From Bdellovibrionota bacterium (GTDB taxonomy: Bacteria > Bdellovibrionota_C > UBA2361), in the NCBI GenBank assembly GCA_044352465.1, contig JBILDU010000091.1, positions 1-11,531 of the forward strand: 11,531 nucleotides of DNA, written 5' to 3'. The notes beneath the pieces are model-generated. The model saw only the letters and a list, made by a program, of their open reading frames with translations. It was not told where the DNA came from and made no database searches. The translations under genes were made by a program, and so were the position numbers. Every line of letters begins with the position of its first letter. The stretch's first letter is position 1. This document shows positions 3,097 to 11,531 of the stretch, piece after piece.

Positions 3097-6000
3097 CTAA
3101 TCGGTAAGCTTCTCAAACCCGAACTGACCATCGCCCTGAAGGAACGCCTCATTGCCATCGACGACTTCACCAACGAGACGCTCACGCTTGGCGAGTCCCT
3201 TACGTGCCTCATGATCTCGCGCCGAGATCTTCTTGGGGCCAGTGACCTCTACGGGCTTTTCCCTGAGTCTCAGTTCGGGCTCCTCAGGGCGACGTTTTTG
3301 ATCGTCCCGCCCGCCATTAGAACCATCATCATCTCGTTGACGAGCCATCGGAGTGGGCTCATCGCGATATGCGACCTTAGGGGGGGAGCCACCGGGCGGC
3401 ACGAAATCGTTTAACGGAGAGAGGTCGGTCCGCGTACCAGCCCCGACGAGAGGGGCGGTACCGACCTTCGGGATAACCCGCGTCTGTGAGTTCGGTCGAG
3501 GCTGTAACTTAAACGCCGAAGTAGCTCCAGCGGTGGTCTGAGCTTCGCTCGTGGGCGGCACCGCAATCTCCTCAACGGGCTTTATCGGCGGGGCCACGGT
3601 ATGCTCGTCGGTCCTTGGCTCCGGCTTCGCTTCGAGAGGCTTCGGTGCTGGGGCTTGGGTCTCGGTCGAGGTCAGTGTCTCAAGTTCGGGTTCCTCAACT
3701 TTGGTCGCATCCTGGGTCTTCGTCTCCAACTTGGTTAAGGTTGCAGTGCCGCCCCCCTCATCACCACCGTCCAGCGCGGCGGGCCCCTCGCTACCAGGAG
3801 AGTAATCTCCCGGTGGGAGGAAATCATCGCTAGCCTCGGGAGCGCGTGAGGTGCCGATCTCAGCTGCCCCACTTTCGGTTGAAGCGCTACCGGCTCTCGG
3901 AGCCCTCACACTCTGTGCAAGGTCGTCGAGCTCACGGGCCAGTGTCTCAAGGTCAGTCGAACCAACATCGTTGTTCACTTTGCTCTCGAGGCGGGTAAGC
4001 TGGCGACGAAGGAGCTTTCGCGCTTCAACATCACCGAGAGCGATGGCGGCTTCGTCGAGCTCTCGGATCGAAGCTTTCAGGGCGCTCTGGTGCATCGCGC
4101 GCTCTTCGAGTGAGGCGACCACACGGCGCGCCTCGGTAAGAGCTTCAACAACCTCGCGCTGTACCTCAGGCCGACCGGTGTAGCGGGCATGAGTAGATTC
4201 CAGTTCGACAACTCTATTCTGCGCTTCGGTCAATTTATGCGCGATCGCCGGTGACGGCTCGATCACCTCTCCGCCCGACGGGATGCGCATACTGTCTGGC
4301 GCATTGAGCGGCATCGAATCGATCTGGGCGAGCAACCTCTCAAGAGCTGGATTCGGTTCGCGCTCGAGCACCTGAACCCGGGTGCGGGGAGCTCCACTGG
4401 TCGGTGCCGGCTCCGACCGGGGCATCGACCGGGACTGAAACTCAGACTGCGGCTCGGCTGAAGGCTCCCGTCGACGGGGCAACGCGCCACCTTCCGACCC
4501 ATCGGTGGAGGCATCGGACCGTTGTTGCGCTGGCAAAGCCTCTTCGTCTGTCGCTCGGCTCGGCTCTCCCTGCTTGAGACCTCCCTCACTGTCCGACCGG
4601 ATTGCCCCGCGCTCATTCATCTCCCGAGCCACGTGGGAGCGACGAATCTCCGCGGCCGAAGCCTCAGCACGGGCGATACGGTCGCGTAGCTCCGATGACC
4701 GCGCTGCGGCATCAGCGCGCGAAGCGGCCATAAATCGATCGAAGTCAAGCTGCCGACCGATCTGTTTCTGAAGCTCGGTGCGCTCGGCTCCTTGACGAAG
4801 GAGCGTCGCCTCATCCGCTTGAAGACCTCGCTCTACCTCTCCTCGCGGGACCTTTACTCCATGGCCGAAATCCACAATATCACCGGCGGCTGAGCCCTTG
4901 GCTTGTTCGACGAGCGAACGGGTACGCGTCAGGAGCGCGGTGCTCCGTGCAATCTCATCGTCGAGATCCGCGAGCCGGTCGATCAGCTCTTTAGCCTCGC
5001 TTGAAAGTGGCGCAACCTCATCGCCCTGAAATGCCCGCTCGGCATCGGCGTGTCGGCGCTGAGCGAGACGGGTGCTCGCGGCGCGCTCGACATCTGACTG
5101 CCGATCCCGAGCGCCAGCGGTGGCGCGCTCGTCGGCAAGGCGGCGTTGACCGAGCTCGAACTCTTGACGAGTCTGCAGGTCCTGAACTGCCACGTCCCGC
5201 TCCGCTCGAAGCTGAGCGATCTTCTGTTGTTGGGCCGAGATACCCTTTTGAACCTCCTCGCGTGGGACTTTGAGACCAGGAGCTACTTCGACTACCTCAG
5301 GGGTTGCCGACCGAGCAGCTTCATCGAGGAGCGCGAGCTCACGACGGAGGAAAGCCTCACTCGCCGTGAGCCCCTCCTCTATCTCGACGACTTTAGCCTG
5401 ACGAACGAGGACCTCCGGAGAAAGCGGGGTGTCGCTCCCCTGCGCGCGTCCCTGACTCGGCGCTCGCCCCGCACCACTCAGATTATCTGGCGCAGGTCCC
5501 GCGTATGCCGGGGCATCGAAAGCCGCCCGTAGGTCATCTGCCGTGACGAGCGAATCATCTCCCCCACCAACGACTGAGCGGGGTTCGTAGGCAGGGGCCT
5601 CGAAATCGAGGCGGAGCTCCTCAGCGGTGGGAACCCGAACTCCATCCTGACCATCTATCGGAGCCGAGCCTGGTCCATTCCCGTCATCATCGGGAGAGGG
5701 CTCGCCATCGTCTCCCGGTCGCCCTCCGTCTGAACCGCCCCGACCGATTGCTGTGCCGGCTGCACCTCCGGATTTCCATCCCGCTTTCGCCGCTTTGACT
5801 AAATCACGTTGCACCGCGATGCGCTCTCCGGCATCACCGATCGACTTTCGTAGCGCCGCCTCTGCCGCCAAAAGCTCCCGTAACGCTGCCTCGTTTTGAC
5901 TGTCGAGGAGAAGCTGGCGTTCCGCTTTCACCACACGGGTCGCCGCCGCAACTTCACTCACGGTCCCATGACCATTTTTCCGAGCAAGAAAATCGATTCG

Positions 6001-11531: not shown

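Follow-up and report, generated by a model that had tools for sequence, protein, structure and literature searches.

The 11,531-nucleotide contig JBILDU010000091.1 (C67) of Bdellovibrionota bacterium assembly GCA_044352465.1, analysed in full and called the window here, is occupied mainly by one giant open reading frame (ORF) on the minus strand. The host genome spans 3.13 Mb in 170 contigs and is estimated to be 95% complete; lake-water metagenome sequencing runs contain window DNA, with no RNA run among the matches listed. The frame is stop-free up to the window edge, its best in-window start being a TTG at 11304 that would give 2,735 residues. Homologues align from window residue 16-18, which corresponds to their own residue ~500 onward, in agreement with an initial annotation of the sequence that called the frame open and its annotated start wrong. 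The anatomy proposed there, running from a helical N-terminal region through about five annexin-like repeats, Gly/Ala helices and three repeat families to a disordered Pro-rich tail, was upheld and can now be drawn with coordinates (residue numbers are those of the window protein):

3097..11529, minus strand: giant ORF, 2,810 codons plus a stop (3097-3099), 5'-open at the contig end
10963..11529, minus strand: helical region (residues 1-189), conserved among close homologues, modelled with low to moderate confidence
9715..10962, minus strand: annexin-fold array (residues 190-605), ~5 five-helix repeats, predicted local distance difference test (pLDDT) >90
10762..10947, minus strand: annexin repeat LLGTTE ... 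EGDFRG (residues 195-256), family repeat hidden Markov model (HMM) E 1.8e-9
9718..9924, minus strand: annexin repeat VAGTTE ... WETSG (residues 536-604), family repeat HMM E 2.3e-10, preceding the junction to the hydrophobic module
9484..9714, minus strand: helical junction (residues 606-682) with a G.PE..E...R..HE motif, conserved and confidently modelled
8830..9483, minus strand: hydrophobic module (residues 683-900), 20% Gly and 10% charged, conserved
8350..8817, minus strand: two to three ~55-residue helical units (residues 905-1060) with YLTEFD-like ends, pLDDT ~90 at residues 900-1000
5938..7929, minus strand: five tandem ~130-residue helical repeats (residues 1201-1864), strongly basic, isoelectric point (pI) ~9.95
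5494..5937, minus strand: helical remainder, then an acidic Gly/Asp/Pro-rich linker (residues 1865-2012), no repeats-in-toxin (RTX) nonapeptide
4690..5493, minus strand: two 138-residue helical repeats (residues 2013-2280), E down to 2.5e-11
3100..4689, minus strand: Pro/Glu/Ser/Thr-rich tail (residues 2281-2810), largely disordered, with short helical islands and a basic-then-acidic end

The annexin-like repeats are real but divergent, and four independent lines support them: PDB sequence matches, a paralogue, a family HMM and predicted structure. The Pfam Annexin model has no match in the window protein at E≤1. A phmmer search of PDB sequences with residues 150-700 returned annexins in 10 of 10 matches (E 0.014-0.41), and a paralogue on contig C45 of the same genome is 31% identical to residues 200-369. 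A repeat HMM built from 204 canonical repeats of the giant protein's own family recognized the two repeats listed above and, marginally, a third at residues 479-530 (E 0.033). AlphaFold2, run with a 40-sequence alignment, gave pLDDT >90 across residues ~190-680, and helix count places ~5 repeats in residues 190-605, the number first read from the sequence. With Foldseek, the comparison that the initial annotation had proposed alongside AlphaFold, the model drew 96 PDB matches at E≤0.001, the best being annexin VI (E 1.7e-8); the matches listed were all annexins or chains of a PDZ series, two of them titled 'fused with ANXA2'. VIA-align, for which the 50 entries listed ran from Z 12.6 to 8.6 and were all annexins or annexin-fusion chains, aligned 284-289 residues (289 to 1avc) at a root-mean-square deviation (rmsd) of 13.5 Å, and two repeats to annexin A1 over 145 residues at 6.8 Å. 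Because VIA-align Z scores below ~13 are borderline and possibly generic for helical repeats, the annexin call rests on fold and sequence together. No tape-measure or housekeeping family accounts for the whole protein: PHROGs held no family at E≤0.01 for the window protein, for its N-terminal piece recovered elsewhere in the genome, or for the downstream 203-residue ORF (orf203).

The array departs from its eukaryotic counterparts in its packing and its Ca2+ loops. Its repeats do not superpose as the eukaryotic disc, as the high global rmsd indicates. A type II Ca2+ site consists of a GxGT loop and an acidic residue ~40 positions downstream; in both sequence-recognizable window repeats the first Gly of the loop is lost (LLGT, VAGT) and the D has become T, and the acidic cap is kept (D and E). 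The other three window repeats are not alignable by sequence. Membrane targeting, as first proposed for this protein, appears well supported by fold and family.

Immediately after the junction, the hydrophobic module opens with a 55-residue hairpin that contains one charge, turns at GTAGTG...P and is flanked on either side by basic residues. After it come three further segments, hydrophobic or amphipathic but weaker, together with a conserved TW..G..G motif. Hydropathy in 19-residue Kyte-Doolittle windows peaks at 2.0 in the module and nowhere exceeds 1.14 outside residues 670-910; together with the Gly content and the single charge, this confirms the hydrophobic Gly/Ala helices seen at the outset. 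Alignments of 40 and 41 sequences place the module in register behind the last annexin repeat and show it to be conserved, with G706 and G748 invariant and the consensus ...VGTGGTATP...GYG.E...D..AVDG...TW..G...GL. A weak ESM Atlas pointer from residues 600-1060 to LXG/pre-toxin-TG clusters (0.90-0.92, few shared features, low recognition) is an unconfirmed lead: PT-TG is not among the best 25 of 70 families found in 41 family members at E≤1, and a PDB sequence search with the same residues gave chance-level rows only.

Array and module recur together well beyond this genome. HMMER over 1.84 billion cluster representatives identified 103 proteins at E≤0.001, of which 43 reached E≤1e-10 and 10 reached E≤1e-30; a word-indexed protein search with residues 1-1000 found nothing, which reflects the sensitivity limit of that method. 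PF00191 was detected in 81 of the 93 representatives scanned (14/19 at E≤1e-3, 33/36 and 34/38 at E≤1e-5), and most members have four or five annexin repeats. Judged from these sequences, the family is large and unnamed, and its core is the annexin repeats plus the same hydrophobic module, followed by a variable C-terminus. What follows the module includes FHA (P0012, P0033, P0044 and the same-genome paralogue), RelA/SpoT (P0031, P0046) and DnaJ (P0048, P0067, L047, L048) domains; DUF7516 occurs in 10 of 41 members, and others end in long low-complexity arms. A signal-peptide-like core was found in the first 45 residues of none of the 92 members starting with Met. A transmembrane (TM)-like window is present in 81 of 103 members and first appears at median residue 642. 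Close relatives of the giant form come from metagenome-assembled genomes (MAGs) labelled Bdellovibrionota, Oligoflexia or Deltaproteobacteria, and canonical members from MAGs labelled Deltaproteobacteria (with one isolate tagged MYXO), Archangiaceae, Burkholderiales, Selenomonadaceae and Thermoflexales.

The initial annotation had asked how many paralogues the genome holds, and a genome-wide annexin search returned one, on contig C45 (G000, 49639-53532, minus strand; L002:7640-11470). This 1,276-residue protein has four Pfam annexin repeats (E 4.8e-50), an Ala/Gly hydrophobic region of the same kind, a pair of FHA domains and, at the C-terminus, a domain that contains Cys, matches DUF7516 weakly and matched no sequence in the PDB. 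In other phyla, canonical family members often have an unannotated ~430-465-residue ORF just upstream on the same strand (L043 4119-5513, L045 3972-5348, L046 3594-4886), and two loci have a ~172-residue ORF just downstream, also on the same strand (L047 9739-10254, L048 9851-10369). These flanking ORFs could be conserved partners.

Because homologues align only from their own residue ~500 onward, ~500-600 residues are missing from the window. The genome-wide Pfam annexin search revealed a fifth site, outside the paralogue, in a frame running off the 3' end of contig C105:

G000 contig C105, nucleotides 35507-37273, outside the window: N-terminal piece, first 589 residues of the giant protein

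This frame has 610 codons, and its likely start at Met22 gives the 589 residues. The piece aligns to residues 1-603 of P0007, which appears from its N-terminus and length to be a same-genus homologue, at 41.6% identity, and the window protein aligns from P0007 residue 627; three further homologues show the same relationship. These alignments suggest that C105 and C67 abut with roughly 0-10 residues missing between them. The contig ends share no k-mers of 21-127 nucleotides and no overlap of 4-60 nucleotides, and we kept the two pieces separate rather than joining them into one sequence. The full protein is therefore ~3,400 residues long with ~6 annexin repeats and no signal peptide, and the window part is its C-terminal ~83%.

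The C105 piece contains one canonical annexin repeat, at residues 446-499 of the open frame (PF00191, 33.1 bits, E 6.1e-8), which passes the Pfam gathering cut-off of 25 bits, whereas the window part does not. This repeat has the canonical type II Ca2+ site pattern, GWGTDE ... AAE. The N-terminus itself (MSSSRLDTP...) is polar and Ser/Thr/Pro-rich and lacks a hydrophobic core, its maximum 10-residue hydropathy in the first 45 residues being 0.52. Beyond the single annexin repeat, the piece has no Pfam or NCBIfam domain; the signal peptide and the DUF4157 or extracellular contractile injection system (eCIS) tag for which the initial annotation had suggested looking were searched for here, and neither was found. 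Another candidate for the missing N-terminus, a 1,761-residue open frame at the end of contig C63, was rejected as Cys-rich and of different composition. That frame, on the minus strand and running off the contig end, is Ala/Thr/Val-rich with many short dipeptide runs (AG, TG, PA, DA); C63 is unlike the rest of the genome in composition and may be a foreign (binning) contig.

C-terminal to the module, the giant protein leaves its family behind. The ~55-residue units (repeat family at residues 932-1056) are common to close homologues, but the ~130-residue repeats have no counterpart in any of the 103 representatives, and the stalk and tail have none in 102 of 103, the single exception being P0008, which shares residues 2173-2699. 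From these comparisons, the ~1,900-residue arm is essentially unique to the giant protein. All three internal repeat families reported initially were found, as the ~55-residue, five ~130-residue and two 138-residue units. A DNA tandem-repeat scan detected none of them, and because they are not visible at the DNA level the repeats are old. Pro content reaches 9.9% in residues 2281-2775. The C-terminal peptide seems conserved by eye, a likeness to homologues that is not significant (best E 0.12). ESM Atlas gave no usable match for the five-repeat block, and PDB sequence searches with residues 1100-1950 and 1950-2810 gave none. The basic ~130-residue block inside an acidic protein (pI 5.7 overall) could bind an anionic surface, for example nucleic acid or acidic lipid.

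Pfam and NCBIfam on the whole window protein likewise returned nothing usable, with no Pfam family at E≤1 except two sub-threshold, chance-level rows, and the RTX nonapeptide pattern GG.G.D has no match in the window protein or the C105 piece. The earlier statement that no catalytic toxin motif is recognizable therefore holds for the window protein. So does the absence of Cys, at 0 of 2,810 residues, where 1,220 same-genome ORFs 300 or more residues long average 1.06% (median 0.95%); the C105 piece contains one Cys.

On C105, the giant gene closes a same-strand series of cell-wall and division genes, murE-murF-mraY-murD-(146-aa ORF)-ftsW-murG-giant. It begins ~290 nucleotides after murG, and no terminator-like site lies in that gap on the coding strand; scans for promoters and terminators at the two ends of the gene gave nothing above shuffles. 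Gene order is identical in a same-genus genome (L028). Downstream, the window contains two further genes:

2140..2751, minus strand: orf203, 203 residues, signal-peptide-like segment at the N-terminus, no family in Pfam, NCBIfam or PHROGs
301-2130, minus strand: aspartyl-tRNA synthetase gene (aspS), downstream of orf203

In three genomes of other genera (L012, G016, G014), murG and the giant-orf203 pair lie on single contigs, the interval from murG to the giant gene being filled with 2-8 kb of unrelated genes. Across 40 other genomes of the order, the giant gene was matched in 7 and orf203 in 24, the latter with or without the giant gene. In 4 of 10 loci lacking the giant gene, murG is followed directly by orf203 and aspS with gaps of 60-990 nucleotides; in the other 6, the stretch fetched held no gene of the division and cell wall (dcw) cluster. 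Other homologues lie elsewhere: one neighbours mlaE/F/D (L011), and two loci in G015 matched no dcw or orf203 marker. These patterns mark the giant gene as an accessory one, inserted between murG and orf203 where the cell-wall/division cluster ends in a variable junction. Because unrelated genes intervene and the giant gene is absent in some relatives, the site looks like an insertion hot-spot and not an operon. The orf203 product was rejected as a partner or immunity protein since 24 of the 40 relatives have it, and in 4 genomes where the giant gene was not found it comes straight after murG. It is instead a landmark of the insertion site and an undescribed cell-wall-cluster-associated gene in this order. 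Secretion, chaperone and known immunity genes were absent from the annotated contexts (4 related loci, the C105 upstream region and 7 further loci), and the genome has no match to eCIS_core or to the type VI secretion system (T6SS) sheath VipB, which at 95% completeness is not proof of absence.

Our preferred reading, which we hold tentatively and with rather less than even confidence, is that the giant protein may be an annexin scaffold anchored by its hairpin in the producer's own inner membrane, on the cytoplasmic side. The helical hairpin at the start of the module would insert into the bilayer, an insertion that would leave both flanks on the same side, and the adjacent annexin array would then lie flat on the acidic phospholipid head-groups of that same face. 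The ~1,900 residues of helical repeats, one block of them strongly basic, and the disordered Pro-rich tail would project as a tether or scaffold. We infer insertion, topology, lipid binding, membrane identity and scaffold role from the fold, the family and the features above. The cytoplasmic face of the producer's inner membrane is the likeliest site because there is no export signal and a hairpin so hydrophobic is normally captured co-translationally; in targeting by the signal recognition particle and YidC, a strongly hydrophobic hairpin without a chaperone or exporter is inserted as it is made. We lean the same way because a large N-terminal domain precedes the first hydrophobic segment and because the domains that partner the core in relatives, among them FHA, the J-domain and alarmone synthetase, include modules of cytoplasmic type. 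Eukaryotic annexins are similarly cytosolic and signal-less, and dock on damaged or remodelling membranes.

Several observations weigh against a resident scaffold. In most relatives the second helix of the hairpin is short, which makes it uncertain that the hairpin spans the membrane fully, and the module is poorly modelled, with pLDDT mostly 30-55 in two AlphaFold2 runs (the second on residues 600-1060 with a different alignment), too low for a fold comparison with colicin/Bcl-2-type pore-forming bundles, which bury a hydrophobic hairpin in a globular set of helices. The Ca-binding loops of the two recognizable window repeats are degenerate. Strong Cys depletion is more usual for exported proteins, and across the family the median Cys content is 0.11%, ~8-fold below the 0.95% of the genome's ORFs, with no Cys at all in 27 of 103 members. 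Toxin-type domains follow the module in some relatives: PRTase-CE in P0040, an ADPrib_exo_Tox/ART C-terminus in an Archangiaceae MAG (E 1e-15) and a C-terminal Zeta_toxin match (E 1.8e-4), and the RelA/SpoT C-termini count among them as well. An N-terminal eCIS_core tag in P0082 (27.8 bits) and an N-terminal LysM domain in P0085 point outside the producer's cytoplasm. Finally, the gene is patchy in its order and evolves fast, with 25-34% identity to homologues against ~70% for the flanking MraY; patchy, fast evolution is typical of conflict or surface proteins.

Some of these observations feed a close rival, itself less likely than not, in which the protein would be an exported membrane-inserting effector that leaves the cell by a signal-independent route; the array would dock on an anionic prey or host membrane, and the Gly/Ala helices would form a lesion or carry the C-terminal part across. 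It would fit a giant, acidic, repeat-rich protein with no Cys in its 2,810 window residues and a Cys-depleted family, relatives that pair the same core with ADP-ribosyltransferase, Zeta-toxin, RelA/SpoT or PRTase-CE domains, a patchy and fast-evolving gene, and a host phylum that, with other holders (Myxococcota), is rich in predators. The proposal by Zhang et al. 2012 (PMC3482391), as set out in that article's text, that annexin domains help toxins delivered by Photorhabdus virulence cassettes (PVC) to breach target membranes points the same way.

Several results weigh against the initial annotation's proposal of a protein secreted or injected for predation or host interaction. The giant protein has no signal peptide, recognized trafficking domain, RTX motif or toxin domain, the family lacks signal peptides throughout the 92 members examined, and the genome yielded neither the eCIS_core nor the T6SS sheath match. 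Its neighbours are murG and a conserved housekeeping-linked gene that occurs regardless of the giant gene, not secretion, chaperone or immunity genes. So hydrophobic a hairpin would also need a dedicated chaperone against insertion into the producer's own membrane, and FHA and DnaJ partners are unusual for delivered toxins. At the level of the family, the effector idea is kept alive by the Cys depletion and by the toxin-type, eCIS_core and LysM domains of some relatives.

A more speculative form of export would treat array and module as a self-contained, signal-peptide-independent device of predatory and social bacteria for entering or crossing membranes. Through it, interchangeable C-terminal domains (ADP-ribosyltransferase, Zeta toxin, alarmone synthetase, J-domain, FHA) might reach other cells as cargo, and the giant form, lacking cargo, would then act as a pore- or tether-forming weapon against the inner membranes of prey. 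Unconventional membrane passage has been reported for eukaryotic annexins. We consider this idea, drawn by analogy, unlikely.

Distinctly improbable, in our estimate, is a resident conflict or damage-response device in which the array would sense injury to the membrane of the producer itself, through Ca2+ influx or acidic lipid that becomes exposed, and trigger the module or, in relatives, the C-terminal toxin-type domain, with an outcome resembling abortive infection or repair. It shares the missing signal peptide and the hairpin with the resident scaffold, and it would suit both the patchy accessory distribution at a variable junction and the RelA/SpoT, Zeta toxin, ADP-ribosyltransferase, PRTase-CE and FHA C-termini of relatives, domains that recur in bacterial conflict systems. 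Against these stand a giant protein without an enzymatic effector domain, a 1,900-residue arm with no obvious role in such a device, and surroundings with no known defence-system protein adjoining (no PADLOC scan was made).

A division or envelope scaffold tied to the dcw cluster, organizing membrane at growth or septation sites, is very improbable: the shared gene order in the host genome and L028, the murG ... giant-orf203 arrangement in L012, G016 and G014 and the terminator-free gap after murG would fit it, but 4 relatives pass directly from murG to orf203, unrelated genes separate murG from the giant gene in three holders, homologues sit elsewhere (beside Mla genes in L011, and in G015), and the gene is present in just 7 of the 40 relatives.

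Published work (PMC3894181, PMC3482391) already covers bacterial annexins, among them forms with multiple repeats, TM regions or fused toxins. The survey by Kodavali et al. 2014 (PMC3894181) reported ~30 bacterial annexins in 17 species. As its text describes them, they resemble the present family in their PF00191 repeats, their bacterial groups (Myxococcales, Burkholderiales), predicted TM regions, extra and sometimes toxin-type domains, and lack of a signal peptide; one, from Burkholderiales, was predicted to lie in the cytosol and to be anchored to the membrane, the same topology as in the resident-scaffold reading. Sections 6 and 10 of that survey describe no shared conserved hydrophobic module, Bdellovibrionota members or giant forms. 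Compared with the annexins in its text, the giant protein differs in its ~3,400 residues, in having most repeats beyond Pfam recognition and in its unique 1,900-residue arm. Within the published text covered, we found no account of the shared hydrophobic module, a family of 103 representatives, the universal lack of signal peptides or the Bdellovibrionota giants. A preprint on giant genes contains 0 occurrences of 'annexin'. Bacterial annexins have so far been catalogued from sequence only, and a full-text literature search found no experimental study of one.

Similar to the giant protein, the PVC/eCIS polymorphic toxins, as presented in the text of PMC3482391, place an annexin domain upstream of a variable C-terminal domain with a proposed role in membrane engagement or breach, and P0082 has an eCIS_core. 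Those toxins combine a single annexin domain with an N-terminal PVC metallopeptidase and a C-terminal enzymatic toxin; the giant protein has none of these and instead carries five to six repeats plus the hydrophobic module, in a genome without an eCIS_core match. Measured against polymorphic toxins more broadly, it shows no N-terminal trafficking domain, no C-terminal toxin domain and no cognate downstream immunity gene.

Annexins are textbook eukaryotic membrane-repair and trafficking proteins, and A1, A2, A4, A5, A6 and the giardins share with the giant protein a fold match and the lack of a signal peptide; the C105 repeat keeps their GxGTDE ... E pattern. They are, in contrast, soluble proteins of ~320-670 residues that pack four or eight repeats into a disc and lack a membrane anchor, whereas the giant protein shows no disc superposition, joins its repeats to a hydrophobic module and has degenerate Ca loops in the window. 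RTX and multifunctional autoprocessing RTX (MARTX) toxins, which leave the cell by type I secretion, are likewise giant, acidic and Cys-free; they lack an N-terminal signal, contain internal repeats and have a hydrophobic region rich in Gly and Ala. The giant protein differs from them in lacking the GGxGxD nonapeptide, a Pfam or NCBIfam match and adjoining ATP-binding cassette (ABC) and membrane fusion protein (MFP) genes, its neighbours being murG, orf203 and aspS.

Many bacterial annexins thus share one architecture, in which a specific hydrophobic module is attached to the repeats, an export signal is missing and the C-termini are exchangeable; in Bdellovibrionota the family reaches ~3,400 residues. 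The unit of array and module corresponds to window nucleotides 8830-10962. As a resident anchor, this unit would be a prokaryotic analogue of membrane organization or repair by annexins; if exported, it would give predators a new means of attacking or entering membranes. Either outcome would bear on the origin of annexins and their ancestral job.

Some minor observations concern the surroundings of the giant gene. The murG/orf203 junction contains between 0.3 and ~8 kb of differing, mostly unannotatable genes (L012 5937-8255, L029 5658-13300, L021 9722-13500), among them a 994-residue ORF and a DUF2142 membrane protein in G016, and behaves as a gene-turnover hot-spot. Within the window, a 95-residue Pro/Gly-rich frame at 2773-3060 on the minus strand belongs to no family, has no counterpart in related loci and is probably not a gene. 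The aspartyl-tRNA synthetase is of the non-discriminating, archaeal type (NF003483, 465 bits) and is fused C-terminally to a YbaK/tRNA_edit deacylase-like domain (PF04073, E 3.3e-19); at the same position, L012 and L013 encode an ordinary bacterial GAD-domain enzyme that is only ~27% identical.

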